This document shows positions 9,648-55,890 of a stretch of 64,000 nucleotides of DNA, piece by piece. This DNA comes from an uncultured delta proteobacterium (GTDB taxonomy: Bacteria; Desulfobacterota; Binatia; Binatales; Binataceae). The position numbers and the translations under genes were made by a program. The stretch is taken from NCBI GenBank assembly GCA_963848285.1, contig CAWKCZ010000002.1:327002-391001 (forward strand), in the 5' to 3' direction. The notes below the pieces were generated by a model, which had not been told where the DNA came from, did not search any database, and saw nothing but the letters and a program-made list of their open reading frames with translations. Each line of letters starts with the position of its first letter. Within the stretch, counting starts at the first letter, position 1.

Positions 9648-10100
9648 TCACTGCGACGCGCTTTTGAGCGGCGTCGCGATGTACCAGATGTGGCCGAACG
9701 GATCCTGCACCCCGCCGCATCGATCGCCCCACTCCTTGTCTGCCATCGGATCGACGACCTTCGATCCCGAATCGAGCGCGCGCTTGAACGCTGCGTCGGC
9801 GTCCGCGACGTAGATGTAGAGATGCAGCGGCGAGCCGCCGAAGTCGCGCGGCGTACCGGCGAATCCCTTCGCGCGATATTCCGCGGCATGCGGCGCGGTC
9901 GCGTCATCCAGCATCACGTGGGTCTCGCCGATCGCCATCTGGATGTGGCTCGGCTTGCCGTTCGGCTGCGTCACGCGATGCACCTCTCGTGCGCCGAAAA
10001 TCTTCTGGTACAACTCGAACGCCGCCTGCGGATCATCGTTGAACATGAACGGCATGATCGATCCGGGGCGCTGGCGAGGTTCGATCTCGCGCGGCGGCAT
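9648..10100 (-). CDS. VOC-family protein, module D (intact ORF; start may be Met at 10055)
   Basis: Uninterrupted 150-aa ORF: FMFNDDPQAAFELYQKIFGAREVHRV...HIQMAIGETHVML...LHLYIYVADADAAFKRALDSGSKVVDPMADKEWGDRCGGVQDPFGHIWYIATP. Confidence 0.85.
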   Translation of the reverse strand: MPPREIEPRQRPGSIMPFMFNDDPQAAFELYQKIFGAREVHRVTQPNGKPSHIQMAIGETHVMLDDATAPHAAEYRAKGFAGTPRDFGGSPLHLYIYVADADAAFKRALDSGSKVVDPMADKEWGDRCGGVQDPFGHIWYIATPLKSASQ

Positions 10101-10485
10101 CTTCGGCCGGAATCGTGAAATCGCGCAGATGCGTCGCGATGTACCATACGTTGCCGAACGGATCCTTCACGCCCGCATAGCGATCGCCATAGCCCGCGTC
10201 GACCGGCTCGTCGATGGAGATCGCGCCGGCCTCGAGCGCGCGCTGGTAGGTCGCATCGGTGTCGGGGACGTATGAGATGCAGCGCGGGCGGCATCGGCTG
10301 ATACGGCCCGTGCGCCTCGCCCATCGCGATGATCGAATCGCCGACGCGAATCTTCGCGTGATGGACACGCGCCTTCGGGGTCCTGATGGCGCTCAGACCT
10401 CCTCGGCGCCGAACGCGCGCTTGAGGAAATCGATCACCGGCGGCGCGCTCTTCGGATGCAGATACGGCGTGATGCTGTGCAGCTC
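10033..10485 (-). CDS. VOC-family module E (frameshifted); N-terminus in frame with the C-terminus of module F
   Basis: ELHSITPYLHPKSAPPVIDFLKRAFGAEEV (ORF 10393..10647). YVPDTDATYQRALEAGAISIDEPVDAGYGDRYAGVKDPFGNVWYIATH (ORF 10033..10368). Confidence 0.6.
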
Positions 10486-10921
10486 CTGCGGCGGCGGTTC
10501 CGCGTCCGCGCGATGGGTCGCGATGTACCAGTGATTGCCGAACGGGTCTTTCACGCTCGCCTCGCGATCGCCGTAGTCCTGGTCCGTCGGCTCATGAAGC
10601 GAGCGTCGCGCCCGCCTTGAGCGCGCGCGCGTAGGTCGCGTCGGCATCTTTCACGAACAGCCAAATCGCGGTCGGATTGGGCTGATACTTGTCGATCGCG
10701 TCGGCGACTTCGATCATCGAGTCTTCGATCTTCAGTTGCGCATGCGCGATTTCGTCGCCGCGCGGCACCCGGAAAATCTCCTCGGCGCCGAACGCATCGC
10801 GGAGGAACTCGATCAGCTTCGATGGCGCCGTTACCTGCAGATACGGCGTGATGCTGTGATAGCCCTCGGGCGCGCCCGCGGGCTCGGTCGCGAGGTTTCT
10901 TCGTGCGGGAGCGCTCTGCAT
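10486..10921 (-). CDS. VOC-family module F (one frame change)
   Basis: MQSAPARRNLATEPAGAPEGYHSITPYLQVTAPSKLIEFLRDAFGAEEIFRV...AHAQLKIEDSMIEV...WLFVKDADATYARALKAGA (ORF 10592..10921). HEPTDQDYGDREASVKDPFGNHWYIATH (ORF 10393..10647). Confidence 0.7.
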
Positions 10922-11622
10922 CTCGCTTCATCCACTCTTCCGCGCGACGCGTCATTTCATCCGGCGTCAGGTCTTCCTTGTGCGTCGAGACGATCCACAT
11001 ATGCCCGAAGGGATCCTGCAAGCGGCCGCTGCGGTCGCCGTAGAACTGATCGGCGATCGGGAAAATCACTTTCGCGCCCGCCGCGATGGCGCTTCTCCGC
11101 GAACGCGTCGACATCCTCGACATAGAGACCGATCGGAACCGTCGATCCGCCGAGCGACTGCGGGCTGCGATTGTAGTTGCCCGTGCTCCGGCGCGATATC
11201 GATCGGCGAATCGCCAATCTGGATCTGCGCATGAATGATGTTGCCGCTCGGATCGTCCAGCCGCATCAGCTCGGTCGCGCCGAAAGCCTGCTTTGTAGAA
11301 TTCGATCGCGCGCGGCGCATCGCGCACCACCAGGCAGGCATTCGCAGTATGAAAACCCGCCGGAATGTAGCTCGCCTTCTTCGCTGCACGGCGCCAGCGG
11401 CGTCACTCGCGCGACGAGATCCTTCTTGAGCCGCGCCTTGAAATCCTCGCTGGGCAGATCGCGCAGCTCCGACGCGATGCGCAGAATCGCGGCGATGCGG
11501 GAATTGACCCGCGGCAGCTTGCTTTCGCGATCGCTCATGATCTTATCGACCGCCTTGTCGAGCTGCTGCGCGAGCGGCGCGGGTTTGGCGATGCGCTTGC
11601 TCTTGTTGCTCGCTCGTTTCAT
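10922..11622 (-). CDS. VOC-family module G with a ~85-aa non-VOC N-terminal extension (frameshifted; 3' end uncertain); candidate anti-sigma partner
   Basis: The ATG at 11622 overlaps the sigma-factor stop (ATGA). N-terminus MKRASNKSKRIAKPAPLAQQLDKAVDKIMSDRESKLPRVNSRIAAILRIASELRDLPSEDFKARLKKDL (ORF 11266..11622). VOC part: FGATELMRLDDPSGNIIHAQIQIGDSPIDIAPEHG (ORF 11066..11389), GGSTVPIGLYVEDVDAFAEK (ORF 10957..11232) and AIAAGAKVIFPIADQFYGDRSGRLQDPFGHMWIVSTHKEDLTPDEM (ORF 10551..11330). Confidence 0.6.
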
Positions 11623-12185
11623 CGCTCACCCACCATCGTGCGCAGACTTTGCAGGCCGCGAAACTGAAGCTGCTTGATGGCGCCCTCGCTACGCCCGATG
11701 TCTTTGGCAATCTCGGCGATACTTTTCTGCTGTGCGAAACGCATGGTGATTACGCGGCGCTGATCGTCGGGAAGTTTCTCCACCAATTTGAACAGCCGCG
11801 CGCGATGCTCGACTTCCGCGAGATCGGCATCGTCTGGACGGATCCGTACTCGTGGAGCTCGCGCAGCTTGATCGCCTCGAGCTGGGCCGCGCGCTTGCCG
11901 CGATCGGCGATCGCATTGGCCGCGATGCGAAACAGCCACGCCGCAAACGGCGCGCCGCGCCATTCGAAGCGCGAAAGATTTTTCAGCGCGCTATGGAAAA
12001 CATCGGCGGTCAGATCCTGCGCCTGATCGCGATCGTGAACCCGCCGCGCGATGAAGGCATAGACGCGTTCGAAGTTGTTCTTCGTAGAGCTGGGCGAAGC
12101 AGGCGGGATCGCGCTGCGCGGCCTCGATCAAGCCGCGCTCCGGCGCATCCTTGGTTCGGCGCTTCAATGCAGGTTTCCCAGCCAC
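11619..12185 (-). CDS. ECF-type sigma-70 family RNA polymerase sigma factor (about 2 frame changes)
   Basis: Region 2: GLIEAAQRDPACFAQLYEE (ORF 11991..12185). My translation of the adjacent frame gives NFERVYAFIARRVHDRDQAQDLTADVFHSALKNLSRFEWRGAPFA. Region 4: LPDDQRRVITMRFAQQKSIAEIAKDIGRSEGAIKQLQFRGLQSLR (ORF 11619..11963). Confidence 0.85.
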
Positions 12186-12225
12186 CTTCGCCTCTAACTA
12201 TATAAACCGCCGGCGCGCGAAAAGG

Positions 12226-12254
12226 TTACGCGGCTTCGAAACCAGAGGTTTTCA
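12226..12254 (-). promoter_or_regulatory. Candidate ECF-type promoter upstream of the sigma gene (TGAAAAC-N17-CGTAA on the minus strand)
   Basis: Reverse complement of 12226..12254 reads TGAAAACctctggtttcgaagccgCGTAA. It lies ~40 nt upstream of the GTG start at 12185 and resembles AAC / CGT type ECF promoters. This is a single occurrence, with spacing one nt longer than the SigW-type consensus I remember. Confidence 0.25.
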
Positions 12255-12373
12255 ACGTTGCGGGTCGGCTGCGGTTTGTTATGAACATCCGACGCAGCGT
12301 TCAAAACGATGAAGCGGTAAGATTCACGTCGGGGTGCTCTCGCGTCTGATCGTCAGAGATGTGAGGATCACCG

Positions 12374-13102
12374 ATGCGCCGCATGACCGTCATCGTTTTC
12401 GCGCGCGAGCCGATCCCGGGCCAAACCAAGACGCGGCTCATCCCGGCGATCGGCAAGGACTATGCGGCCGCACTCGCCGATGCGTTCAATCGCGATGCCC
12501 TCGCGAAGGCCAAACGCCTCGCGCCCGCAGAATTGGTGATCGCAGGTAGCGCTCCCGGAGGCGCCAAGCGCAGCCGTTATTTCAAAACCCTCGCGCACGA
12601 ATTCGGCGCGTGGGTCTTCGAGCAGGGCACCGGACATCTCGGCGCGCGCATGGCTGCCGCGATGCGTCCGTTCACCAATGCCGGCGGCGCTTTGCTGATT
12701 GGCACCGATACGCCCTCATTGCCGATGAAGCTGCTGACCAAGAGCGCCGACCTCTTCGAGAAGCATCCGATTGTCATCGCGCCGACCCTCGACGGCGGCT
12801 ACTACCTCGTCGCTATGCGCGGGAAGCTGGCCGACATCTTCAAGCCGATGCCTTGGGGCGGTCCGGAGGTGCTCGCGATCACGTTGCAGCGTCTGCGCGA
12901 TGCGGGAGAGCCCTACTGCCTCGGGCCATGGTGGTACGACGTCGATCGGCCGATCGACTTGCAGTTTCTCATCTCGCATTTGAAGAATCGGGTAAGCGCC
13001 TTCGGTGGCCAGGCGATGGCACTCGGATCGCCGCACCCATGCCCTGCGACCGCCGCTTTTTTGAAACGCCTCGAAAAACAAACGCCGCGTCGAGTCGCTT
13101 GA
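12374..13102 (+). CDS. DUF2064 / TIGR04282-like glycosyltransferase (arsenosugar-associated family)
   Basis: Intact 242-aa ORF: VIVFAREPIPGQTKTRLIPAIG...GALLIGTDTPSLP...APTLDGGYYLVAM...PWGGPEVLAITLQRL, the typical DUF2064 pattern. Confidence 0.75.
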   Translation: MRRMTVIVFAREPIPGQTKTRLIPAIGKDYAAALADAFNRDALAKAKRLAPAELVIAGSAPGGAKRSRYFKTLAHEFGAWVFEQGTGHLGARMAAAMRPFTNAGGALLIGTDTPSLPMKLLTKSADLFEKHPIVIAPTLDGGYYLVAMRGKLADIFKPMPWGGPEVLAITLQRLRDAGEPYCLGPWWYDVDRPIDLQFLISHLKNRVSAFGGQAMALGSPHPCPATAAFLKRLEKQTPRRVA

Positions 13103-13781
13103 AGCTGTCGGTCATCGTCCCGATGTTGAATGAGGCCGCTGCGATTAGCGGCGACCCTCGAAGCGATCCGTACCGGCGCCCGCGAAGCGGAAATAATCGT
13201 AGTCGACGGCGGCAGCACCGACGCCAGCGTCGATGTGGCGCGGCCGCTATGCGATGTGCTCATCGAATCCTCGCGCGGGCGCGCGCTACAGATGAATACC
13301 GGCGCCGCGCGCGCCTCAGGTGACGTGCTGGTCTTCGTGCATGCCGACACGATTGTGCCGCTGACCTTCGGGCGCGATATCGAAACCGCGCTCGCAGAAC
13401 TCGCAGTCGTAGGCGGCCGCTTCGATGTTAGCCTCGACGACAATCATCCTCTGTGCGTGCTGATTGGCGCGCTGATCAGCCTTCGTTCGCGCATCAGCCG
13501 CACCGGTACGGGAGATCAGGCGATTTTCGTACGGAAGCATACCTTCGAGGCTCTCGGCGGATTTCCCGATATGCCGATTTGCGAGGACCTCGATTTCGCG
13601 CGCCGGATGAAACGCGCCGGCCGCGTCGCATGCCTGCGCAGCCAGCGTGATTACCTCGGCGCGGCGATGGCGCAAGGGCGGCATCATGCGCACCGTGCTG
13701 CGGATGTGGACGATTCGATTGTTGTATCTGGCGGGCGTTTCGCCGGTGCGCCTCGCGCGCATGTACTCCGACGTTCGATGA
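13099..13781 (+). CDS. GT2-type glycosyltransferase, TIGR04283-like (about 2 frame changes)
   Basis: TTG at 13099 overlaps the upstream stop. KLSVIVPMLNEAAAI (frame of ORF 12610..13323). EIIVVDGGSTDASV, RGRALQMNTGAARASGDVLVFVHADT and TGDQAIFVRKHTFEALGGFPDMPICEDLDFARRMKRAGR (ORF 13130..14074). The third frame gives VITSARRWRKGGIMRTVLRMW, ending at TGA 13779..13781. Confidence 0.75.
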
Positions 13782-13783
13782 TC

Positions 13784-14734
13784 TCAGGCGAGCGCGCCGG
13801 AGCAACTCGAACCCGCGCCCGCCGTACATCCGAAGCAATGCGAGCCGGTTGCGATGCGCGCGCCGCTCAACTCGCCCAGATCGTTGATATCGAAAATCGT
13901 CAGCGCGCGACCGTCGTCCGTGGACAACGGCATCCCGAGCATCTGATTGAAATCGCAATCGTAAAGCGTGCCCTCGTAGCCGACGCTCACCAGGTCGCGG
14001 CACATAACGGTCGAAACCGTCGTAGGATTGAAATGATTCACCAACAGCGCCATGTAGTCTCGATCGCTCCCTGAATGCCGAAGCTGATCGGCGAAGCGCT
14101 TGATCGGCATGTTGGTAATGGTGAGCAGATGGTTGAACTCGATGCCGAAACCGTCGCGCAGCTCCTGACGATAGCGCGCTTCCAGTTCGGCCTGCGCGGG
14201 CGGCAGAAACGCGAACCGACTGGATTGTAAACGAGGTCAAGAACCAATTCGCTCCCCGCCATCCCATAACCAAGTCGATTCAAGACGCCGGAGCGCCTCG
14301 ATGCTTTTCTCGAAGACTCCCCGCCGCGTTGTTTGTCCACATTCTCGGCCGTGTAGCACGGCAGTGAGCAAACCAAGTTAGCGTGATGCTCTCGATAAAA
14401 TGCAGGCAGCCAATCCATACCCGGCTGAAAGATGACTGTGAGATTGCATCGTACGATGACATCACGTCCCAGCCGGCGCGCCGACTCGACCAGGAATCCA
14501 AAATGTTCGATTCAACTCTGGCGCGCCGCCGGTGATGTCGACGATTTCGATCGACGGGCTATGCGCGAGCAACTCGATGACTCGCTCGGCCACCCGCGAA
14601 TCCATCTTCTCGGTGCGCGCCGGACCCGCATCGACGTGGCAATGATGGCACGCCTGGTTGCACACCTTGCCGACATTGACCTGCAGCGTGCGCGGCGCGA
14701 CGCGCGTCAGCGGCGCGAGACCATGACGCTGCAA
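13784..14734 (-). CDS. arsS: Arsenosugar biosynthesis radical SAM protein ArsS-like (at least 3 frame changes)
   Basis: LQVNVGKVCNQACHHCHVDAGP holds the CxxxCxxC cluster motif at 14639..14662 (ORF 14462..14734). PCYTAENVDKQRG (ORF 14038..14418). C-terminus VSVGYEGTLYDCDFNQMLGMP...IATGSHCFGCTAGAGSSCSGALA (ORF 13784..14110). Confidence 0.8.
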
Positions 14735-14760
14735 CTCGGCGTCAAATGCGCCGGGACGTG

Positions 14761-15276
14761 CTATTTCCGAAGCGCCGCCATTAGCTCAAGCTCTTCGCGG
14801 AAATCGCGCCAGGTCGCAAGAGCGCTACTTCTGGCGCGCCAGACCAGCGGCTTCTTGCCCTGCATCATTTCCATCATGCCGGTCAACTCGATTCGCGAGG
14901 GCGTAACCAGCAGAGGCCGAAATCAGGCGACTGATGCCCGCCGGGCCAGAATTGCGCCAATTCGTAGTCAAAGACCTTCCCTTCCCAGACGCGCTTTTTC
15001 TCCGCCGGCATCGTCGATGAAACGCGCGGTGCCGGTCACCGTAAGATGAACGAAGTCGGGGCCGGCCTGGTAGAAGAGTTCGACTTTGGGATTTTTCGCG
15101 ATATGCTTGCCCTTGGCGGAATTGCCGGCCGGTCGCGATCCACAGCTTCGTCGCCTTCGAATGCCGGATGCACCACGCGCACCTTGGGCTGATCGCCCGA
15201 CCGCCGTCGCGAGGTAGGCCCAGGTGGCTTTTTTCGCAGCCTCGTGAAACTTCTGCAGGGTTTCAGCGTCGCTCAT
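14761..15276 (-). CDS. Pyridoxamine 5'-phosphate oxidase-fold protein (general stress protein 26-like), frameshifted
   Basis: MSDAETLQKFHEAAKKATWAYLATA and NPKVELFYQAGPDFVHLTVTGTARFIDD (ORF 14968..15276). Reconstructed tail ...WEGKVFDYELAQFWPGG...RIELTGMMEMMQGKKPLVWRA ends at TAG 14761. Confidence 0.5.
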
Positions 15277-15422: not shown

Positions 15423-16057
15423 ATGGAACGTACTGAACGCCGCGCCCAGGTCCTGCGCCACGCGAAGCGAATTTTCGCGCGCAAGGGCTATCATCGCACC
15501 AATGTCGCCGACATCATTGCGCGCGCCGGCATCGCGCGCGGGACTTTCTACCTCTACTTCCAGAACAAAAGGACCTTTTCGAGGAATTGCTGGAGCAGGT
15601 GGTCTCCGAGCTCCGACGCGGATTTTGCGCCTCAAAGTAGGCACCGGGAAGACGAACCCGGTCGATCAATTGCGCGACAACCTGCGGCGCGTGGTCGGCT
15701 TCGTGCTCGCATGAACGCGAGCTCACCGACATCCTGCTTAATCATTCGGTCGGATTCGATCGCGAGCTGGATGCGAAAATTCGCGAGTTCTACGATCGCA
15801 TCGCGCAGATGATCCAGCGCTCGCTCGATTTGGGAATCGAGATGAAGCTGGTGCGCAAATGCGATACCCGCGCGGTCTCGTACTGCATTCTCGGAGGAAT
15901 CAAGGAGGTCGTCGGGGTGCTGTCCCGCACCCGTCCGCGCGATACCGAAACCTTGGTGCAGGAGATCCTCGATTTCGGGTTGCGCGGAGTCGCGCGCCCC
16001 GAACTTCTCGCAGAGATCGATCGCAATTCACAAAACGCCACGCGATGCAAAAAATGA
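15423..16057 (+). CDS. TetR/AcrR-family transcriptional regulator (about 2 frame changes)
   Basis: RAQVLRHAKRIFARKGYHRTNVADIIARAGIARGTFYLYFQNK (ORF 15423..15812) is the TetR N-terminal HTH. C-terminal ligand domain in ORF 15809..16057. Confidence 0.8.
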
Positions 16058-16084: not shown

Positions 16085-16873
16085 TTGCCCATAACTAGAA
16101 TGACATGTCAGTTCATCGAGCAAAATCTTCTCCGCAATGGCCGCCCGCAAATGCGTCGCGCCGCATTCTATGATCTCGACGGGACCCTGGTCGATCTCAA
16201 CCTCGTCCACATCACCTTGTTCGTGCTCGCCAACCTCGGCGAATGGAGCAACCGCCTGAGCTATCTCGCGGCTTTCGCCGCGCGCGCGCCGAGACTCTAC
16301 CTCGCGGAGCAGCAGGACCGGCGCAAGCTCAACATCCTGATGTTCGAGGCGTTCAAGGGAATCTCGCGCGACCGCCTGGTCGAGCTGGGACGCGAATACT
16401 GCGAGCGCGTGCTCATCGGCCATCTCTATCCCAAGGGCATCGAACTCATCGAAGCGAACCGCCGCGCCGGCCTGGAGCCGGTGCTGGTAACCGGCTCGCC
16501 CGATTGGGTAGTTGCGCCGCTCGCGCGAGCATCTCAACATCGCGGATTTTTCCGCCAACCGGATGGCGATCAGCCGCGGCCGCGCGACCGGACGGCTGCT
16601 CGAACCGATCATGGCGACGGCGGAGAAAGCGACCTGGTGCGAGCAGTACGCCAGCCGAGCACGGCATGAAGCTCGCCGATTGTTGGGGCTATCGCGGATT
16701 CGCACTACGACTTGCCGTTTCTCACCGCGCTCGGGCATCCGGTCGCGGTGAATCCTGACAAGCGGCTGCGCGCAACTGCGATGAGCCGGCAATGGCCGAT
16801 CATCCATCTGGAAAAGAATCGCAACGGCAGCAGCATCATCGCCGACAACGTGCGGCGTCTGGTTGAGGCCTAA
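16085..16873 (+). CDS. HAD-IB family hydrolase (SerB-like phosphatase fold), about 2 frame changes; likely start at Met 16151
   Basis: MRRAAFYDLDGTLV carries the DxDxT motif (ORF 16085..16669). LVTGSPDWVVAPLA. Later frames give ADSHYDLPFLTALGHPVAVNPDKRLRA, the HAD-IB motif IV region. Confidence 0.7.
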
Positions 16874-16882
16874 GGGGAATCG

Positions 16883-18523
16883 ATGGCTCGTCCGGAAGCC
16901 AAACTAAAAGAACTAAAAACCGCCGAACTGAAGCATGAGGTCGGCGCGCGCAAGGATTTGGTCATCACGACCAATCGGCGCTCCGAGCGCCGCCTCATCG
17001 CGTATGGCGACGATTTCCTGTTCGAGAAGCTGCCGGTCGGCACCCGCGTCATTTATCCGCCGCCGCCGCTGGAGCGCTCGCCGATCCCGACCAGGCGATT
17101 CGCTACGCCCTGCTCCATCCGGAAAATGCCGATCCGCTGTTCGCGCAGCTCAATCCCAACATGCGCGTGACGATCGCGATCGACGACATCAGCCTGCCGC
17201 TGCCGCCGATGCGCCGTCCCGACATTCGCGAGCGCCTGCTCAACCAGGTGATGCAGACGCTGGCCGACTACGGCGTTGACGATGTGCATCTGATCATCGC
17301 GACGTCGCTGCATCGGCGCATGACCGAGGCCGAGATTCGCCGCATGGTGGGCGAAAAAGCCTTCAAACAGTTTTGGCCGGATCGCCTCTACAACTTCGAC
17401 GCGGAAAATCGCGCCGAGCTCACGATGATGGGCAAGACCGATCACGGCGAGGAAGTGTGGCTCTCCAAGCGCGCCGCCGACTCCGACCTGGTCATCTATC
17501 TCAACATCAACCTGGTGCCGATGGACGGCGGGCATAAGTCGGTCGCGGTCGGTCTCTCGCCCTATGCGAGCCTGCGTCATCATCACAATCCGACCACGCT
17601 GCGCGATTCGCATTCGTACATGGACCCCAATCATTCGGCGCTGCATCGCTCCGCCGATCGGATGGGACGCGTAATCAACTCGCAGCTCAATGTGTTCACG
17701 CTCGAGACCGCCGTCAACAACAACATGTACGGCGGGATGCTCGACTTCCTGCATAAGAACGAAGACCGCTTCACCGACTGGGATCACGTGCGGCTGAAGG
17801 GATTTCAGTGGACGATGCGCAATCTGTCGGACGATCTGCGCCGCCAGATGCTGCGCAACTACGCCGCGCCCTACGGCATGACGGGGATCTGGGCGGGCGA
17901 GACCGAAGCGGTCCATCGCAAGGCGCTGGCGAAAGTTTTTCAGCAATACGCGGTGCCGGTGAAGGGTCAGGCCGACATTCTAATCGTCGGCGTGCCGTTC
18001 ATTTGCCCCTACAACGTCAACTCGATCATGAATCCGATCCTCGTGCAGTGCACCGGGCTCGGCTACCTGTTCAACATGTATCGCGGCAAGCCGCTGGTGC
18101 GCGAAGGCGGCACGATCATCGTCACGCCATCCGCTGCGCGACGAGTTTCACCCCGAGCATCATCCGAGCTACATCGAATTTTTCCATCGATGCCTCGCGC
18201 AAACCACCGACGCGGTCGAGCTCGCCGATCAGTTCGAGCATGAGTTCGCGCACAATCCGACTTACATCCACATGTATCGCTACGGCAATGCCTATCACGG
18301 AGTGCATCCCTTCTACATGTGGTATTGGGGCGAGCCCGCGCGTCAGCACTGCGGACGCGTGATCGCCGCCGGATGCGAGGAGCCCGAGGTTGCCGCGCGC
18401 CTCGGATGGGAAGCTGCCGACAGTCTGGATGAAGCGATCGCGATGGCGACCTCCGAACAAGGCCGCTCCGCGAGCATCACCTACTTGCATCTGCCGCCAC
18501 TGGTAATTGCCGATGTCGAATAG
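16883..18523 (+). CDS. LarA-like (lactate racemase N-terminal domain, DUF2088) protein, about 2 frame changes
   Basis: VTIAIDDISLPLPPMRRPDIRERLLNQVMQTLADYGVDDVHLIIATSLHRRMTEAEIRRMVGE and DLVIYLNINLVPMDGGHKSVAVGL (ORF 17161..18243) match the LarA N-domain pattern. C-terminus in ORF 18272..18523. Confidence 0.65.
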
Positions 18524-21500
18524 CAACGGAAACGGAAAACTGAACGGCAAACCGCGTCCGACTCCCCCGATGCCGCCGCTGGAGCAGGTGCTCCGCAAGC
18601 GCACCATCCTGCTGACCGGCGCGACCGGATTTCTCGGCAAGGTCTTTCTCTACCTGCTGCTCGCTGGCATCCGGAAATCGAGCGCGTCTACCTGCTGATT
18701 CGCGGCGACAAGAAATCCAGCCTCAACCGCTTTCGCCGCGAGGTTCTGGATTCGCCGGTGATGGGCCCGCTGCGCGAGCAACTCGGCGACGCGCTTCGAC
18801 AAATTCATCGAAGAGAAAGTCGTCGTCATTCCCGGAGACATCACCATCGAAGGGCTCGTCGGCGACGGCGGCGATCCGATCAAACGTGGCAGCCCTCGAT
18901 GCGGTCGTGCATTGCGCCGGGATGGTGAATTTCGAGGCGTCGCTCGAGAAGGCGATTTCCGTCAACACGCTCGGCGTCGCCAACGTCATCGAATACTGCA
19001 AGAAGCACGACGCCGCGATGATGCACGTCTCGACCTGCTATGCGGCCGGCGTCGCCGACGGGCATCGCTACGAAGACGACATCGCGGAAAACTGGTGCCC
19101 GATCGGCAAGCGCAACTTCAACCTGCAGCGCGAGATTCGCGAGGCGCTGGCCACCGTCGCGCGCATCGAGGCGGAATCGCGCGACCAGCTTCGCCAGGCG
19201 GAATTGATCCGGCGACGATCGAAATCGAAGCCAGTCAGCGACGACGAATCGCAAAATGGCGATGCTCATCCGCTCGCCGACGGACGCCGCAAGCGATGGG
19301 TCGATGAGCGCCTCAAGGAAGTCGGCAAGGCGCGCGCGCTCAGTTGGGGATGGCCCAACACTTACAGCTACACCAAGAGCCTCGGCGAGCAGTTGGTGTT
19401 TGCGGAGCGCAACAATCTCGAACGTCACCGTCGTGCGTCCCGCGGTCATCGAGAGCGCGCTCGCCGATCCGTTCCCCGGATGGAATCAGGGCGTCAACAC
19501 CAGCGCGCCGCTCACGTATCTCTCGGGGCGTGGCTATCGCTTCTATCCGGCAAGCGCCGAACTGGTGCTCGATATCATCCCGGTCGACCTCGCCGCGCAC
19601 GCGATGATTCCGATCCTCGCGGCACTGCTCACCAAGCGTCATCGCCCGGTCTACCAGCTCTGCACCTCCGATGTGAATCCGCTGCCGATGCGCCGGCTGG
19701 TCGAGCTGACCGCGCTCAGCAATCGCCGCGAGCATCGTAAGGAAGGCGGGGTGATGGCGAAGATCGGCCCGCACATCGAGTCGGTGGTCGTCTCGCAGAG
19801 CACCTACGACCTCGCGAGCGAAACGATGCCGCGCGTGATGAAGTATGCGGCCTCATTCGCACGCAGCGTGCTCGGCGAGGATTCGGCGCCCGCGCGAAAA
19901 ATTCGAAAGCACGGTCGACTGGATCGCGGAAGACATGGACCTCGCGCGCGAGATGATCGAGGTCTATCGCCCCTACATCCAGGAGCTAATTTATACATTT
20001 CCACGGCAACAACGTCCGCGAGCTGTACGCTGCACTGAAGCCGGCCGACGCCGTGCGCCATCCGTTCCGGCCCGACCAGATCGATTGGGCCGATTACTGG
20101 ATCAATGTGCATCTGCCCGGACTGCGACGGCACATTTTTCCGCAGCTCGATTTGCATACCAAGGGGCGGCCCGAATCTGCTCAAGCGCCATCGCTCGCTG
20201 GTCGCGATGCTCGACAACGCCGCCGACCGCTATGGATCGACGCGTCGCGCTGGTCGCGCGTCAGCCGTCCGGGCAGAAAACCAACCTGACCTATCGCGAG
20301 TTGCGCGACAGTGCGCATCGCGCGGCGCTGCTGCTGCTGAGCCGCGGCGTCAAGCCCGGCGATCGCGTGTTGCTCATCGGCGAGAACTCGCCGGATTGGG
20401 TGTTGGCGTTTTTCGCCATCGTATGCGCGGGCGCGGTTGCGGTTCCGCTCGATCATCAGATTTCTGCCGAGGAGCTCGCGCCGATTTGCGCGATTGCCGA
20501 GCCGACTGCTGCGCTGCGGTCGAACGCGACGGCGCAACGCCTCGAGGACGGGATCGCGGCGGACGGTCCCTGGAATCATCGAAATCGACTTCGCGGAGTT
20601 GTCGCGTCCATTCATCCTCGAAGAAAGGCGATCACCGCCGACGCCCGAGCCCGATCGCAAGGCGCTCGCCTCGATCGTCTTCACCTCGGGTACCACTGGC
20701 GCGCCCAAGGGCGTGATGCTCACGCACGGTAATTTCACCGCCGAGATCCAGATGCTCGGGCGCGTGTTCTCGCTCTCCGAGCGACGACCTGGTGCTCTCG
20801 CTGCTGCCGCTGCATCACACCTTCGAGTTCACTTGTGGGATGCTGCTGCCGATCGCGAGCGGCGCGACCATCGCCCATCCCGATCGGCGTCGATGCGAAG
20901 AATCTCTCGCGTACGCTGGCGGACCTGCGGCCCACCGCGCTCATCGGCGTGCCTGCGCTATGGGAAGCGATCCACCGCCGCATCCTCGATGAGATCGAAT
21001 CGCACGGCCCGTTCTTTCATGCCGCGTTTCAATCAGCTCCGCGAGCTCAACCAGCGGCTCATTCGCGATTCCGGGATCAATCTCGGTTCGATCATGTTTC
21101 CGCCAGGCGCATAGCGCCCTCGGCGGACGCCTGAAGCTCGCAGTTAGCGGCGGCGCCGCGCTGCCGAAACGGGTCGCGGATTTCTTCAAAGACATCGGGA
21201 TGCCGTTGCTCGAAGGCTACGGCCTTACCGAGGCGCGCCGGTGGTCAGCGTCGCGCATCCGGGCGAGACGAGCATCGCCGGTTCGGTTGGCAAACCGCTC
21301 TCGAAGCTCGAAGTCAAGCTCGCCGGCGAGGGTGAGGTCGGCGAGTTGCTGGTGCACGGCCCCAACGTAATGGAGGGCTACTATCGCAATCAGGCCGCGA
21401 CCGATGCGGTGCTGAAGGACGGCTGGCTTCACACCGGCGACCTCGGCCGCTTCGACAGCGAGGGGCGACTCTACATCGTCGGACGCGCCAAGGACGTCAT

Positions 21501-22910
21501 CGTCGATGCGGGCGGCAACAACATCTACATCGATGAGGTCGAAGAAGTTATACGCGCACAAATCCGACATCAAAGAGATGGCGGTGGTCGGGATGAAGCT
21601 GGGCGGCGGCGAGCAGCCTGCCGCGCTGGTGGTTCCGGCTTATGGGCGCGGCACCAGCCGGCGCACCCTCGAGGATCGGCTGCGCACGCATTTCGAGAAA
21701 GTCAGCGCCGTCGCTGAGCCCGCACAAGCGGATCAGGATTCTGCGCTTTACCGATCACGAATTGCCGCGCACTCGCACGCGCAAGGTCAAGCGCAACGAG
21801 GTTGTCGCGATCCTGCGCCAAATGCTCGAGGCGCGCGCCGGAGGAGACAAGCCTCCGCCAGCGCCGAGGTCGAGAAGTGGCTTGCGCATGCGATCGCGCA
21901 GGTTTCCAACGAAGCCACTCATATCACGCCCGCGACGCGACTCATCGAGGACCTTGGGCTCGACTCACTCGCGCTGGCGGAACTGGCTGAACATATCGGC
22001 GAGCATCTTGGACGCGATATCGCGGCCGAGGAGCTGGGGGATCTTCGTACCGTTGACGATCTGCAGAAGCTTGCGGCGAACAGCAAGGCTCCCGCGCGTA
22101 TTGCGATGCCCTCCTATGCGAAATTCGCGGAGCCCTTCACTCCGCATGCTTCCCGGCCCGCTGAAGAGCTCTGGGCCGCGCGCTGTTCCGCCGCGCGCAG
22201 AGCGCGGTCTTCGATTCATGGCTGAAGCCGCAAATCCTCGGACGCGGCAACATTCCCGCGAATTCGAACGTGCTGGTGGTCGCCAATCATTCGAGCCACG
22301 TCGATTTCGCGCTCATCAGTCATGCGCTCGGCGAGATGGGCAAAGGCCTGGTCGTGTTGGCCGCCAAGGATTACTTCTTCAACACGCCGACGCGGCGCTT
22401 CGTGGTCTCGAATCTCACGACGCTAATCCCGTTCGATCGCGAGCGGGCGCAACTCGAATCGCTCGACGAGGCACTGGCTGAACTTGCTGCCGGCCGCAGC
22501 GTGCTGCTGTTCCCCGAAGGAACCCGCTCGCCCGACGGCACCATGCAGGAATTCAAGAGCGGCGCCGGATATCTCGCGCTGCGCAGCGGATGCGAAGTTT
22601 TACCGATTCACATCAGCGGGCACTTATCGACGTGCTGGGCAAGGGCAAGCCTGATTCCGCGCTATCATCCAGTCGAGATGCGCATCGGGCGGGTGGTCTC
22701 AAATGCCGAACTGCGCGATCGTCGCGGAAAGCTTCCGAGGGCGCGGGTGCGTATCGTAAGGCCTCCGACTTCCTGCGCAAGACGGTCGAGGACCTCGCGC
22801 ATCCGCAAAAGCGGGCCCCTCAACGAACCTCGCGCAAACTCGCCGCGGATGCTCACGAAGCAGCGCCGGTCGAGAAAAACTCACGGGCGCGGCGCCACGC
22901 CAAGGGCTAG
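18507..22910 (+). CDS. Multidomain lipid enzyme: FAR-type NAD(P)-reductase + acyl-AMP/CoA ligase + ACP + PlsC-type acyltransferase (ElbD-like), split over ten or more frames
   Basis: Rossmann TGATGFLG at 18615..18638. YSYTK (YxxxK) at 19363..19377. AMP-binding core [11 protein letters not shown] at 20680..20712, plus [29 protein letters not shown] and [10 protein letters not shown]. Phosphopantetheine site GLDSL at 21956..21970. Acyltransferase HSSHVD (HX4D) at 22288..22305 and FPEGTRS at 22510..22530. Start is TTG 18507 or ATG 18513. End taken from ORF 22590..22910. Confidence 0.8.
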
Positions 22911-22917
22911 GCATCGG

Positions 22918-23776
22918 CTGCTGCGGTATCGACGTCATATCGCGCTGGTGTTGAGTGCGATGACGATCGCGATCGGTGCGAGATCCGCGAGTGCGTGGGA
23001 CAGCGCGACGCATCGGGCGATTGCGCGACTCGCAGTGGAGGCGCTTCCGCTCTCGCCGCTTAAAACTACACTCACACGCGACCAAACCGCATTGGAAGTG
23101 CATGCGGTTGAACCGGATTCCGTCCTCAAAAAGCGCTATGGCAAGGCCGAGGATCGTCGGCACTATATCGATTCAGAAATCTTCGGCAGCGATCCGTGGT
23201 CCGTGCTCGATCCTGATTTCGACAAAGATGCGCCGCCGTTTCGGCGAACATAAACTCGCACGCGCGGGAACCCTGCCGTGGACCATCGAAGCCGTCAGCG
23301 ATCAACTCGAGGACGCGTGGCGCCGCAACGACTGCGAGGCAGTGATCCGCCTTTCCGGCTACCTGGCGCATTACGTGGGCGATGCCAGCCAACCGCTTCA
23401 TTCGACGATCAAATACGATGGCTATCCTCGCGACCGCGGGATGCATGCGCGCATCGAGCTCGCAGTCGACCACTCGCTCGGCGAGCTTGAGCCGGTCGCC
23501 CATCAAGAGATTCACCTCGAAGATATCAACGACGTATGGACTCCGGTCATCGCCGAGATTCGTGACGCGAACGGGCTGGTCGGCAACGTCATCCGCGATG
23601 ACCGAGCGGCGCGCGACGCCGGCGACTACTCGGGGCGCGACTATCAGCGCGCGGTGATGCATGAGGACCGCGCAATGTTCGCGCATCAAATCGCGCGGGC
23701 AGCATCCGTGCTCGCGTCGATATGGCTCTATGAATGGCATCGCGCAGGCTCCCCTTCCACATGCGCGGCAAAGTAG
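22918..23776 (+). CDS. Secreted zinc-dependent phospholipase C / S1-P1 nuclease superfamily protein (one frame change; start uncertain)
   Basis: Signal-like RRHIALVLSAMTIAIGARSASA is followed by WDSATHRAIARLA (tail of ORF 22270..23253). GTLPWTI and LSGYLAHYVGDASQPLHSTIKYDG...GMHARIE (ORF 22976..23776). Confidence 0.5.
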
Positions 23777-23833: not shown

Positions 23834-24356
23834 TTGGTGGCAAAACCGCTCGCAGAACGAGGCACGCGCCCATCGCGCGACCGCCCCTCACTTGCCGAAA
23901 TCACCAGCCAGCTGCTCATCGGCGAATATCCCCGCCCGGACGACATCGGATGGCTGAAGGATGCCCATCGCATCACTGCGGTGCACAACCTTCAGGATGA
24001 CGACGATCTGCGGCTGCACGGCCTTGACCTTCAGGCGGTGCGCGCCGAATGCCACGCCAACGGTATTTCGTTCGTCCGCACCCCGATCCAGGACGGGAGC
24101 GCCGACGCGATGGGTGAGCGGCTGCGAGTCGCGATCGACGATCTCCATTCCCTGATTGCAGGCGGTAAGCGAGTCTATCTTCATTGCAACGCGGGACTCA
24201 ATCGCGCGCCGACGCTCGCCATCGGCTATCTGCGCGCGCACGGAAAAATGTCGCTCGACGAGGCGGTCGCGCACGTTAAGAAAGCATCGCGCGTGCGGAC
24301 CGTTCATGACGATCCTCGAAGACTACTTCGGCCCGCGTCACATCAAGCCGAAATGA
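23834..24356 (+). CDS. Dual-specificity (Cys-based) phosphatase, one frame change near the 3' end
   Basis: The HCNAGLNR CX5R active-site loop is at 24182..24205 (VYLHCNAGLNRAPTLAIGYL, ORF 23834..24547). The tail in ORF 24156..24356 ends at TGA 24354..24356. Confidence 0.75.
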
Positions 24357-25114
24357 AAGCGCGCGCGGTATCAGCTACGGCGATGGCCGAGACCAATGGC
24401 GGCCGCCTGTTTCTGCTGGTGTGCGCATGGGGTGTGCATCTGTATACCGCGCTCGGGCGCGGTCTTCGGCGTGCTGGCGATTCACTACGCCGGCATCGGC
24501 GACTATCGCGCATCGTTCATCGCGATGGCGGTAACCATCGCGATTGATTCCAGTGACGGCACACTTGCGCGTTACTTCAACGTCAAAAAACGCGTGCCCG
24601 GCTTCGATGGCGCGTTGCTCGACAACATCGTTGACTATCTGACTTACGTGGTCGCGCCGGTGTTCCTGGTGATCCGCGCCGCAATGGTTACCGGAACCGC
24701 CGGATTTGCGGTCGCGGGCTTCGTGCTGATCGCGAGCGCGTATCAATTTTGTCAGGCCGACGCCAAGACCGACGGACCACTTCTTTCTCGGATTTCCTTC
24801 GTACTGGAATCTGGTCGTTTTCTATCTGTACTGCCTGCACTGGGGAGCGACTGCCAACGGGGTGGTGCTCGTTCTCTTTCGCCGTGATGGTGTTCGTACC
24901 GATCAAGTACATTTATCCGAGCCGCACCAAACCTCTTCGCCCACTCACAGTCACGCTCGGGATAATCTGGGGAGTCATCACGATCGCGATGCTGCCTGCG
25001 CTTCCAGTGGTTAATCCGATCCTGCTCTACCTGTCGCTCTCCTACATCGCGTACTATTTCATCGCGTCGTTCGCGCTGCATGCGCGCGCGCTGACGACGC
25101 GCCCGGCCTCATGA
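24353..25114 (+). CDS. pcs: Phosphatidylcholine synthase (CDP-alcohol phosphatidyltransferase family), about 2 frame changes
   Basis: The ATG at 24353 overlaps the phosphatase stop (ATGA). CAWGVHLYTALG. CDP-alcohol motif DSSDGTLARYFNVKKRVPGFDGALLDNIVD at 24546..24635. My translation gives AKTDDHFFLGFPSYWNLVVFYLY, then VFVPIKYIYPSRT (ORF 24749..25114). Confidence 0.75.
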
Positions 25115-25122
25115 GCGAATAG

Positions 25123-25870
25123 ATAAATCCCGCGATCTCGCCGCCCGGTCCATGGCTGGAAATCCTGGAGGGTGATGCTCCGATTCTCCTGATCGCTCCG
25201 CATGGCGGCCGCGCGGGACAGGCGACCCGCGCAATGCTCAATCCCAAGGTCAATGATCTCCACACCGCCGCGATTACCCGCGAGCTGGCTGCGATGTTGA
25301 ATGCGCCTGCGCTGATCAACGCGCGCGATGGATCGCAATCATCTCGATCTCAACCGGCTTTCGCAGGTAAGCGCGAACGCTCCGTGGTTTCTCGAAATGA
25401 TTCTCGAACGCCTGGCTGCCATCGTCGCGCGCCATCGGTCATGCGACGATTCTTGTTGTCCACGGATGGAATGTTATCCAGGCGCGCGTCGATCTCGGGT
25501 CTGGGATTGCGCCGACATGGCGAGCAATTGCGGCCGCCCGGCGCCGCGCGAGTGTCAGCCTCCGATGCGTTCATCCATGGCCCGCTCGGCGACCTCGTTG
25601 CGCAACTCGGTCAGCGATGGAATCCTCGCCAGCTTCGGGCTGCGCTATCCGGGCGGTGGCGCACAAAATCTCTTGCAGGCGTTTACCGATCGCCATCTGG
25701 AAAGTCCGATTGCAGCGTTGCGCGAACTTTCCGCGATGGCAGCGCGCGATCAGATCGATGCGGTGCAATTGGAGCTTTCGGTCGCTTTGCGTATGCCGGG
25801 CGAACTTCGCCGCCGCTGCATCGCATGCGATCGGCGAGGTCTTCGGCGATGCGACGCGAGGCCTTCGACG
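25123..25870 (+). CDS. N-formylglutamate amidohydrolase-like (FGase fold) domain, several frame changes; no clear start codon
   Basis: My translation gives PILLIAPHGGRAGQATRAMLNPKVNDLHTAAITRELAAML. Then MDRNHLDLNRLSQV...TILVVHGWN and ILASFGLRYPGGGAQNLLQAF...IDAVQLELSVALRMPG (ORF 25328..26062). Confidence 0.4.
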
Positions 25871-26716
25871 AGCGCTCCGCTCGAGCGCAAACTGGTGGTC
25901 GTTCGTTCGCCGACTCCCAAAGCCTGCGACAACTCTGCAAAGCCGCCGCGGCGCCGGCCAGTGCCGACCGGGTCGGAATCGAACTTTTCGACCCTCCGCG
26001 CAAAATCGGTGCGATGGCGAGCTTCGATCTCGGTGCCGGAGGCGTCGGCGCGCGCATCATGATGCTGCTCAGCGGAGGTCGCGTCGCGCTGTTCACCGGT
26101 GAAGGCAAACCAAGACGCGACGGTAATCGCCTCAGCCTCGGTCCGCTCGCGCTCGAATCGCAGGGCGGCGAGATGTTGCTCAGCTTTCACGGACACGCGG
26201 TGATCGTGCCGGACGCGACGCATTATCTCAGCATCGAGCGCGCGCTGGCTTCCGGATGGCTCGACGAATCGATGGAGGTGGCGATTCGGTTGCGTCCCGG
26301 TAGCGCGGCAACGCCGGATTCGACCTCGAGCAACTCTTCGAGGCGAGCGACGAAAGCAAGCGCAGGCTCGGTTGCGCACTTCGGAAAGCTCAGCGGTCGG
26401 CGTGTATCGATGGGGTCGCGTCTGAAATCAGCGGCGTCGGCCGCAGCGGGTCTCTCATTCACCGGGCTCGGGTCCGCAACGCTTCAACTCGCGCAGAATG
26501 ATCTGGGCTTGCTTCGATGATGAGTCCGCGCCCGATCGCAATCGAGATGCGCTCGGTCTCGCGGCGAAGACAGGAGACAGCGCAGCGGTCGGATTTTGCG
26601 CAGCGACGGGATGGACGCCGTGCGCGGTCGATCAGCTCGAGGTCGAGCGCCGTCAGTCTCGATCGCCGCCGACTCGCCTGTCGGCGAAACTCGCGGACAC
26701 GCACGCATCATGCTGA
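25870..26716 (+). CDS. Hypothetical domain or protein, possibly fused to the FGase-like region; frames unresolved
   Basis: GIELFDPPRKIGAMASFDLGAGGVGARIMMLLSGGRVALFTGEGKPRRDGNRLSLGPLALESQGGEMLLSFHGHAVIVPDATHYLSIERALASGWLDESMEVAIRL (ORF 25234..26520) looks protein-like, but I recognise no family. Confidence 0.3.
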
Positions 26717-26967
26717 TGCGGCGCGGTCGAGAATTTCATTCCACTCTCGCGTCCCGGACCCGATGGCGCCCGAATTTTCACTGCGCTCGGTTTTGCGCGC
26801 TTCAGATTGGGCGACCTCGGAAGGCGCGGGAATGTTCGAATACTCGCGCCGGCCGAAGTGCTGCCGGATTCGATGGGCGACGATGACGCCGAAGACTGAA
26901 GCGCGCTCGGGCGAACTAGCTTTGACGCGCCGCCGACGGCGATGCGGCGCCTCGCTGGCCGGCGCGG

Positions 26968-44973: not shown

Positions 44974-45912
44974 TCAACCGATGTCGGAAGCTGCCAGCGT
45001 CACGTAAGACCATGGCTCATTGGTAGTGCTGCGCTCGTGGGCTGGAGTCGCAAAAAACCGGAATTGCCGATCCAGACCGCGCGGCTTGAATAGCATTCGT
45101 GGCCGGCAAAGCGACGCCGTCGAGTCTTGCGCCGGCCATGGAACCAGGGTCGGACTGAGCCACGCCCCGGGCGGCCCATCACGCCACAAATCCGCTCCCT
45201 GCCAATCGACCGCGAGCCATACCAGCGGCATCCGAAACCTGCGGCGCACGTAGTAACCGAGCAGGCGGTCGCCATCCAGCCAGCCGAAGAGCTCGTAGTG
45301 ATGAATGGGGTGATCGAGGAATCGCCATTTGAGAAATGCGCAATCAACCGCCAGCGCCGGTGAGCCAAGGGTGCGGCGCCAGTCATCGAGCGCGCTCAGA
45401 TCGCAGCTCGCGAGGATCGCCTCGGAAAGCCGCACCGCTTGGCCGCTCCTCCATCGCGAGCGGCGCAAGAGCGGCAAGCGCACGCGCACATCGTCGACGG
45501 TGCGAAAGACCATCTTCGTACGATGCCAACCCGGAGTCGCGCTCTCATTCGGATGGCCAATCAACCACTCATCGGTTCGTTGCCGTTCTTGATTGACCGC
45601 CAGGATCATTCGGACGAAAAGATTGCGCCCGCGACATTTCGGATGCACCAGCACGTGAACCACCGCGACCGTATCGATGATCGCGCTACCATTGGTCATC
45701 CGAAACGGAATCAATGCCATCATGCCGACGTAGGAGCCATCGCCATCGAGAGCCAACGCGATGCGACATTCGCCGTTCGGATTTCGCCGGTAAAGCCAAT
45801 CCAGATAGTCGACCCGCCGCACCGGATCGCCGTCGGGATAATAAGTCGCGGCGAGCGCGAGCACCCGATCCATTGAGCATTCGGCAATCGGTCTTACGAC
45901 GATTTCTTCCAT
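44974..45912 (-). CDS. GNAT-like (possibly FemAB-related) acyltransferase
   Basis: Intact 312-aa ORF. VGMMALIPFRM...VAVVHVLVHPKCRGRNLFVRMI resembles the GNAT acyl-CoA-binding motif. Located inside the polysaccharide operon. Confidence 0.45.
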   Translation of the reverse strand: MEEIVVRPIAECSMDRVLALAATYYPDGDPVRRVDYLDWLYRRNPNGECRIALALDGDGSYVGMMALIPFRMTNGSAIIDTVAVVHVLVHPKCRGRNLFVRMILAVNQERQRTDEWLIGHPNESATPGWHRTKMVFRTVDDVRVRLPLLRRSRWRSGQAVRLSEAILASCDLSALDDWRRTLGSPALAVDCAFLKWRFLDHPIHHYELFGWLDGDRLLGYYVRRRFRMPLVWLAVDWQGADLWRDGPPGAWLSPTLVPWPAQDSTASLCRPRMLFKPRGLDRQFRFFATPAHERSTTNEPWSYVTLAASDIG

Positions 45913-45942
45913 GCCGAGAGGAATCAGCTTGCCGTCCCAGCG

Positions 45943-46827: not shown

Positions 46828-46830
46828 CTG

Positions 46831-48033: not shown

Positions 48034-48046
48034 CTGACGCGGCGCA

Positions 48047-52939: not shown

Positions 52940-52947
52940 AGGTTCGC

Positions 52948-54096: not shown

Positions 54097-54182
54097 CCGG
54101 ATCGGACCGCTGCCGATACCGCCTCCAAAGACCGGGCGGCTCCGCGAAGGTTCAGCGGTAAGGTAGGTCGCGCTGATGGGAG

Positions 54183-55878: not shown

Positions 55879-55890
55879 GACAAAAAGGTT

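Follow-up and report, generated by a model that had tools for sequence, protein, structure and literature searches.

An ElbD-like multidomain protein encoded by a frame-disrupted gene in Binataceae

Does a 4.4-kb stretch of coding sequence that is broken into many short frames encode one multidomain enzyme, and to which family would such an enzyme belong? The question is raised by a 64,000-nt segment (positions 1-64000, hereafter the window) of contig CAWKCZ010000002.1, from assembly GCA_963848285.1 of an uncultured member of the Binataceae. A preliminary description, made from the sequence alone, had proposed a continuous gene for a four-domain enzyme in which an N-terminal reductase precedes an acyl-AMP ligase, an acyl carrier protein (ACP) and a PlsC acyltransferase. 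We found that one protein of ~1456 aa is encoded at 18513-22910 on the + strand after ~25 single-base frame corrections. Our comparisons indicate that this gene is a Binataceae copy of elbD, a gene already described in Myxococcus xanthus, and that the reductase-first order is the norm for its family. As a whole, the best explanation is a single functional ElbD orthologue in an indel-laden Binataceae assembly, working by the mechanism proposed below (probability of about 0.82).

One gene in a noisy part of the assembly

No long open reading frame (ORF) is present between 18400 and 23000; the ORF list and the three-frame translation reveal a continuous sense path whose frame changes every ~200 bp. 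The ten motifs attributed to the four domains were all recovered on the + strand, in one direction and at the same positions (Table 1). The frames were corrected against an intact homologue of 1456 aa (P0001). Because gapped tblastn of this protein followed wrong frames (49% identity), we chained ungapped high-scoring segment pairs and used a frameshift-aware dynamic programming alignment. The ungapped tblastn yielded 22 colinear segment pairs with 19 frame switches, and the dynamic programming alignment required 25 single-base corrections, 23 modelled as +1 (an extra base) and two as -1 (a missing base). The corrected path (18519 to 22907) encodes 1456 aa with zero stop codons and is 90% identical to P0001 over the full length. 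Twelve of the same switch points were recovered without homology by following the phase of third-position GC-content (GC3) with a hidden Markov model (HMM), which is too noisy (strand confusions) for comparing frameshift density between regions. The stop codon (22908-22910) coincides with the end first proposed for the gene; its true start is most likely ATG 18513 (MSNSNG..., as in P0001) and not TTG 18507, where the preliminary description had placed it.

A single uninterrupted frame of at least 1380 codons is present in 76 of 84 related Binataceae loci. Among the remaining eight, four end at contig edges and four are long-read metagenome-assembled genomes (MAGs) with a break. The proposal of one continuous gene is borne out by the stop-free corrected path and by the intact homologues, which are single ORFs. 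The same observations led us to reject a naturally split gene, although elbD split between reductase and adenylation parts is known in Poribacteria and Acidobacteria. Programmed frameshifting was also rejected, given ~25 events without a common slippery context and the same breaks in unrelated neighbours.

Alternatively, the frame breaks could be real mutations in a decaying pseudogene, in which case the four-domain protein would not be made. Such decay would agree with ~25 frame-disrupting indels within 4.4 kb. It would also agree with the uneven density of frameshifts, a point against our interpretation: at 46.8-54.2 kb, several ORFs remain whole over 400-660 aa (Table 1). This unevenness may come from local coverage or polishing. 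We mapped 16 proteins of a syntenic contig with intact genes (L001) onto the window, and 15 of the 16 genes at 12.3-32.8 kb show frame switches (1-8 per kb). These broken neighbours include the genes of FtsK, a MiaB-like enzyme, LolA and a ParA-like ATPase, which are disrupted at equal or higher density than the ElbD-like gene. Because essential neighbours (FtsK, MiaB-like) are equally broken, assembly noise explains the breaks better than a pseudogene. Other observations also argue against decay: the high identity of the stop-free path to an intact orthologue, the preponderance of single-base insertions (23 of the 25 indels) with no substitutional decay alongside, and the purifying selection indicated by a dN/dS of 0.10 (dS 0.58; dN 0.059) between the corrected coding sequence and its intact orthologue in contig L002. 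A pseudogene is thus very unlikely, and we conclude from these sequence comparisons that the ElbD-like gene is in all probability functional and that its frame breaks represent assembly or sequencing noise.

The 25 indel positions (18660-22733) are not concentrated in homopolymers. The insertion bias of the frame errors (23 versus 2) is atypical of nanopore deletion errors and resembles uncorrected insertion-type noise. Caution is needed in this part of the window, where ~1-8 indel errors per kb make ORF-based readings unreliable.

Domain architecture and relationship to ElbD

All four proposed domains were matched by Pfam models in the frame-corrected protein, in the proposed order (Table 1), to an extent that chance would not produce. 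The preliminary description overlooked the Sterile domain that lies C-terminal to the reductase Rossmann domain and scores just under its gathering score. The succession of NAD_binding_4 and FAR_C/Sterile is that of eukaryote-type fatty acyl-CoA reductases (FARs), and aa 28-538 of P0001 align to residues 16-507 of the 532-aa fatty acyl-CoA reductase of PDB 7eoz (2e-43). A hand-stitched version of 1404 aa presented the same order: NAD_binding_4 (7e-49), Sterile (2e-7, below gathering score), AMP-binding (8e-83), AMP-binding_C, PP-binding (1.8e-7) and Acyltransferase (7e-25). The best PDB and NCBIfam matches of the adenylation region are fatty-acyl-CoA synthetases. PDB relatives were found per domain only, with 7eoz for the N-terminal part and many acyl-CoA ligases for the middle. 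NCBIfam contains no ElbD-specific model, and the relatives are named just "AMP-binding protein" or "long-chain acyl-CoA synthetase". The catalytic motifs of all ElbD domains are intact in the window: the Rossmann GxxGxxG, YxxxK, the adenylation core, the DSL serine (the phosphopantetheine serine of the ACP, in GLDSL at 21956-21970), HX4D and PEGTR.

We searched for homologues of the hand-stitched protein and obtained 1395 matches, the best with 90% identity and 100% coverage. Nearly all of the best 120 are single proteins of ~1410-1490 aa with the same Pfam set, and the organism-named matches among those listed belong to Candidatus Binataceae/Binatus. An exhaustive search of 1.84 billion protein representatives was conducted with residues 1-1185 as the query, so that the acyltransferase of the matches was checked separately by Pfam. 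All Binataceae collapse into one representative in this search; dozens more representatives of 1400-1700 aa are colinear at 30-45% identity, and shorter forms lack the FAR part. A Myxococcota bacterium was the one organism named among the cluster members of 10 distant representatives. Six divergent representatives (30-45% identity) share the order NAD_binding_4, Sterile, AMP-binding, AMP-binding_C, PP-binding and Acyltransferase, with Sterile above its gathering score in four of the six (P0136, P0152, P0157 and P0179). In a family alignment (A2; n = 14; 30-45% identity) the catalytic residues of every domain are invariant, including G-x-x-G-F, Y and K of the reductase, the D-S pair of the ACP, and H, D and PEGTR of the acyltransferase.

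Species genomes of GTDB were also scanned. A first scan yielded only Binataceae-type MAGs and a second used generic ligase motifs; the full-length relatives among the matches listed come from at least Bradymonadaceae, Polyangiaceae, Myxococcales, Pyrinomonadaceae (Acidobacteriota subdivision 4), other Acidobacteriota and Phycisphaerae. A DNA pattern for WGWPN[TI]YTYTK reached cultured Myxococcaceae such as Corallococcus praedator (L240) and Citreicoccus, and M. xanthus is absent among the matches listed. The C. praedator protein (1475 aa) presents the same Pfam order as the window protein and is 38.4% identical to it end to end (1454 columns; 888 bits). The proteins of Myxococcales and Polyangiaceae are 36-39% identical to it. 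Its gene has a LarA homologue upstream and an NAD-epimerase downstream, which is the elbC-elbD-elbE layout. In a quick neighbor-joining tree (no support values), the proteins of Binataceae make up one branch, whose sister is a group of Myxococcota and Acidobacteriota subdivision 4 with elbB-C-D-E context. The LarA-like neighbour is missing from a more distant group, made up of Phycisphaerae and other Acidobacteriota.

ElbD of M. xanthus (MXAN_1528; ABF88003.1 / Q1DC43) was reported by Lorenzen et al. (2014), as summarised in PMC9131029. It consists of an N-terminal FAR1-like part followed by an acyl-CoA synthetase (ACS) domain, an ACP and an AGPAT-like acyltransferase (PMC9131029). The window protein presents the same domains in the same order and, at ~1456 aa, is close in length to the Corallococcus counterpart (1475 aa), but its host belongs to a different phylum-level clade. 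An N-terminal reductase, previously described as unusual, is not so, because the published ElbD has exactly this order; it is also canonical in every divergent representative that we tested, and is unusual only relative to carboxylic acid reductases (CARs) and non-ribosomal peptide synthetases (NRPSs). ElbD had been named only as a phylogenetic reference, and the orthology of the gene itself to elbD had gone unrecognised. These comparisons suggest that the gene is very probably an elbD orthologue broken only by sequence errors.

The joint presence of adenylation, carrier and reductase domains could also point to a CAR- or NRPS-like natural-product module with a novel, rearranged domain order, which the preliminary description implied. 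The logic of activating, tethering and reducing a substrate is shared with these enzymes, and tools of the antiSMASH/MIBiG type class the elb cluster as a biosynthetic gene cluster (bioRxiv 10.64898/2026.06.23.733905). However, the reductase (R) domain of CARs and NRPSs is a short SDR located C-terminal to the carrier, whereas the window protein carries its reductase (aa 32-539) before the adenylation domain (aa 564-1085) and the ACP (aa 1116-1177), with an acyltransferase after the carrier. In addition, this reductase is a full eukaryote-type FAR (NAD_binding_4 and Sterile; nearly full-length alignment to 7eoz) and not just a terminal R domain, CAR (5mso) matches the adenylation part only and weakly, and the domain order is kept across phyla and identical to that of ElbD. 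The neighbours are lipid-metabolism genes, with no condensation or ketosynthase domains. A natural-product module is therefore extremely improbable.

Other known systems resemble the window protein in part. It shares a FAR1-type N-terminal half and a GNPAT/AGPAT-type HX4D C-terminal domain with the mammalian peroxisomal FAR1 and GNPAT (acting with AGPS), but fuses these activities with adenylation and ACP domains. Its substrate is presumably ACP-bound rather than a CoA ester, and no AGPS homologue was found among the window genes examined. MXAN_1675 of M. xanthus (FAR1-like and GNPAT-like) also has an N-terminal FAR-like part and a C-terminal acyltransferase (PMC9131029), but it lacks the adenylation and ACP domains and lies beside an AGPS gene, whereas the window protein has both domains and is encoded beside HAD and LarA-like genes. 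Finally, Aas fuses a PlsC-type acyltransferase to an acyl-AMP-forming ligase, and the NCBIfam models of Aas match partially (216 bits versus a cutoff of 1221). In contrast to the window protein, Aas carries its acyltransferase at the N-terminus and has neither a reductase nor an internal ACP.

Gene neighbourhood and the elbC position

We compared the gene neighbourhood across 84 Binataceae loci (L001-L084), with counts over the loci that have enough flank (Table 1). The conserved block starts with a TetR-family regulator, which is found in every locus together with the HAD-IB and LarA-like genes; the Zn-phospholipase-C-like gene is variable (~38% of the loci). The CDP-alcohol transferase matches the phosphatidylcholine synthase models of NCBIfam with up to 222 bits, below their cutoffs. 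The M. xanthus operon consists of elbA (NAD-epimerase), elbB (HAD), elbC (unknown), elbD and elbE (NAD-epimerase) (PMC9131029). The window cluster resembles it by the HAD (elbB) and elbC genes upstream of elbD, neighbours that the preliminary description also missed. It differs by the lack of a linked elbE or elbA, by the TetR regulator upstream, and by the downstream genes for the dual-specificity phosphatase (DSP), the phosphatidylcholine-synthase (Pcs)-like transferase, the DUF7064 protein and the variable Zn-phospholipase C (PLC)-like protein. The presence of elbE downstream is a feature of the context and not of the protein.

In eight loci of other phyla (Bradymonadaceae, Polyangiaceae, Myxococcales, Pyrinomonadaceae and Acidobacteriota), the HAD and LarA-like genes immediately precede the ElbD gene; an ElbE-like gene directly follows it in L086-L091, L093, L094, L096 and L240. 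Two loci of Acidobacteriota and Phycisphaerae (L092 and L095), from a more distant clade of four-domain ElbD-like proteins (~30% identity), have no LarA-like neighbour, and their HAD gene lies on the downstream side; the partnership with ElbC is therefore not universal in the wider family. In the window, the stop of the LarA-like gene and the ATG of the ElbD-like gene share 11 nt (18513-18523), and the same overlap is found in the intact contig L002 (8371..10011 and 10001..14362), an arrangement compatible with elbC and elbD being translationally coupled. Among the window ORFs sampled, we detected no lar cofactor genes, AGPS or elbE.

Table 1. Positions of the ElbD-like gene, its domains and motifs, and other genes of the window, with Pfam E-values for the frame-corrected protein and occurrence in Binataceae loci
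Feature	Position	Strand	Residues (aa)	Evidence	Loci
TetR-family regulator, frameshifted	15423..16021	+		tblastn of intact L001 protein, 3 frame switches; TetR_N/TetR_C_24 in homologue contigs	71/71
HAD-IB phosphatase, ElbB-like, frameshifted	16196..16870	+		tblastn; intact L001 copy Pfam HAD 2.3e-25, TIGR01490	73/73
LarA-family (nickel-pincer nucleotide) homologue, ElbC-like, frameshifted	16883..18523	+		Pfam Lar_N 1.6e-28 on window fragment	75/75
ElbD-like coding sequence	18513..22910	+		~25 single-base frame corrections; 90% identity to P0001
FAR-type reductase Rossmann, NAD_binding_4 (PF07993)	18612..19606	+	32-362	2.3e-47
Reductase motif TGATGFLG	18615	+
Reductase motif YSYTK	19363	+
FAR C-terminal Sterile (PF03015)	19944..20139	+	475-539	2.2e-7; 31.4 bits, just under gathering score of 35.4
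Adenylation domain (acyl-AMP/acyl-CoA-ligase type), both subdomains	20213..21785	+
AMP-binding (PF00501)			564-952	4e-83
AMP-binding_C (PF13193)			1003-1085	1e-9
Adenylation motif, 11 residues	20680	+
Adenylation motif GYGLTE	21215	+
Adenylation motif HTGDLG	21430	+
Adenylation motif GRAKD	21481	+
Adenylation motif, 10 residues	21765	+
ACP, PP-binding (PF00550)	21878..22063	+	1116-1177	1.8e-7; 31.7 bits, above gathering score of 20.8
ACP motif GLDSL	21956	+
PlsC/AGPAT/GNPAT-type Acyltransferase (PF01553)	22240..22617	+	1236-1361	7e-25; HX4D (HSSHVD), FPEGTRS
Acyltransferase motif HSSHVD	22288	+
Acyltransferase motif FPEGTRS	22510	+
Zn-dependent phospholipase C / S1-P1-like	22993..23770	+		Zn_dep_PLPC 4e-7, above gathering score in intact L001 copy; weak on window fragment	29/77
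Dual-specificity phosphatase DSPc	23912..24353	+		Pfam 1.5e-13 (window), 1.9e-15 (L001 copy)	62/74
CDP-alcohol phosphatidyltransferase, phosphatidylcholine-synthase-like	24353..25111	+		Pfam CDP-OH_P_transf	56/66
593-aa protein with C-terminal DUF7064	25150..26896	+		tblastn, 7 frame switches; DUF7064 1.5e-5	52/60
GT4 ORF, unbroken	46834-48186	-
TylF-type methyltransferase ORF, unbroken	48050-49417	-
AsnB-type ORF, unbroken	50969-52951	-		661 aa
GT4 ORF, unbroken	52951-54201	-

The gene in the elbC position is described as of unknown function in the literature. Sequence comparison indicates that it is a LarA-superfamily homologue: the intact L001 copy (L001:4268-5908) passes the NCBIfam model NF052592 for the NPN-dependent hydroxyacid isomerases LarAH14/15/16 (832 bits versus a cutoff of 740). 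In other phyla and in Corallococcus (L240:750-2360), the copy immediately preceding ElbD is 51-58% identical to it, and the LarA-like protein is better conserved across phyla than ElbD (36-39%). Its closest PDB relatives belong to the LarA subfamily with a single catalytic histidine, which was recently described and whose substrate is unknown (PMC12611868). We found no link between lactate racemase and ether lipids in the literature searched.

Further features of the window were recorded. A conserved trio upstream of the TetR gene (12374-14779), consisting of DUF2064 (+), a family-2 glycosyltransferase (+) and a radical-SAM/DUF3641 gene (-), is syntenic in the homologue contigs. At 44977-57609 the - strand carries two GT4 glycosyltransferases, a TylF-type O-methyltransferase and a glutamine-dependent AsnB-type amidotransferase, probably a polysaccharide or glycoconjugate cluster; this region presents a markedly negative GC skew (about -0.06 to -0.10) and a positive AT skew. 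Across the entire window, no tRNA or tmRNA (ARAGORN) and no Rfam family at gathering threshold were detected, although indel noise could hide some.

Predicted function and significance

Experimental work on M. xanthus gives a frame for the function of the window protein. Only for M. xanthus is ElbD known to adenylate fatty acids and load them onto the ACP in vitro; alkyl and vinyl ether lipids are lost in its elbD mutants, and an iso-15:0 aldehyde is present in the wild type and not in the elbD mutant (PMC9131029). By analogy, the central adenylation domain of the window protein would activate a long-chain fatty acid to an acyl-AMP, and the acyl group would be bound as a thioester to the phosphopantetheine arm of the internal ACP (the serine in GLDSL). 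The N-terminal FAR1-type reductase, using NAD(P)H, would then convert the ACP-bound acyl group to a fatty aldehyde or alcohol, the future ether-linked chain, and the C-terminal PlsC/GNPAT-type domain would move an acyl group to an acceptor of the glycerol-phosphate or dihydroxyacetone phosphate (DHAP) type. Together with the co-transcribed ElbB-like HAD phosphatase and ElbC-like LarA-family protein, the output may be a 1-O-alkyl glycerolipid, whose head group, in Binataceae, is then probably added by the downstream CDP-alcohol transferase. The chemistry first suggested for this locus, in which the fatty acid is activated, loaded on the internal ACP, and reduced or transferred, is essentially the published working model of ElbD. 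What the sequences show is the continuity of the gene, the set and order of its domains, their intact catalytic motifs, purifying selection, homology, and shared synteny with elb clusters; the reductase product, the acyltransferase acceptor and the making of ether lipids by Binataceae are inferred.

Besides the uneven frameshift density, several observations weigh against this interpretation. The FAR-alcohol and acyltransferase activities were not detected for ElbD (PMC9131029), and ether-lipid formation in M. xanthus reportedly requires ElbE. Searches of the 64-kb window and of the 84 Binataceae loci gave no ElbE-like gene, which could lie elsewhere in the genome. Pontiella has elbD homologues and no ether lipids were detected there (PMC11868695). 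Finally, the case for orthology is built on a Corallococcus protein recognised by its architecture and synteny, and not on M. xanthus ElbD (ABF88003.1) itself. Given the unlinked elbE and the presence of elbD homologues where ether lipids are undetectable, our confidence that the ElbD-like gene makes ether lipids in this organism is only moderate, on the favourable side of even.

The lack of a linked elbE, the FAR and acyltransferase activities not detected for ElbD and the elbD homologues of organisms in which ether lipids are undetectable also favour another view, in which the protein belongs to the ElbD family but this clade makes no ether lipids. The enzyme would then supply fatty aldehyde or alcohol, acylate glycerol phosphate, or both, on the way to something else: wax-ester-type storage lipids, for example, or an unusual ester phospholipid or signalling lipid. 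The different set of downstream genes (DSP phosphatase, Pcs-like transferase, DUF7064 and variable Zn-PLC-like) is in line with such a product. However, elbB, elbC and elbD form a strictly conserved core that is syntenic with the clusters of Myxococcota and Acidobacteriota that are tied to ether lipids, and the catalytic motifs are all conserved. A wax-type product is further disfavoured by an acyltransferase that is of the PlsC/GNPAT type and not of the wax-synthase/DGAT type. We therefore regard a non-ether product as unlikely, though worth keeping in view.

Under the ether-lipid interpretation, a more speculative proposal concerns ElbC. As a nickel-pincer enzyme, it could shuttle a hydride at the sn-2 hydroxyl of acyl-glycerol-phosphate, giving a transient DHAP-type ketone that allows the FAR-made alcohol to replace the acyl group. 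In this proposal an ether phospholipid of a distinct kind, perhaps an alkyl-ether phosphatidylcholine, would come from the elbE-less Binataceae cluster with its Pcs-like transferase and DSP phosphatase. We consider this combination rather doubtful, with low odds of being right in full. If true, ElbC would fill the chemical gap in the AGPS-independent elb route, and an abundant uncultured soil lineage would produce a distinct ether phospholipid.

The architecture of ElbD was described in 2014 and is widespread. Homologues of elbD have already been reported in many phyla and serve as markers in metagenomic surveys of ether-lipid potential. What is mildly new here is the Binataceae clade and a cluster variant without a linked elbE and with head-group and phosphatase genes; no paper in the literature searched names both Binatia and ether lipids, and the top ten results of a wider search with Binatota added contain none that mentions ether lipids. 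Our results extend the elb core (HAD, LarA-like and ElbD) to the Binataceae, a common uncultured lineage of soil and peat, where it is present in every locus examined. The LarA membership of ElbC offers a testable way into how the elb pathway forms the ether bond. The presence of this core in Binataceae is also relevant when bacterial producers of ether lipids, and of proxies of the branched glycerol dialkyl glycerol tetraether (brGDGT) type, are sought.

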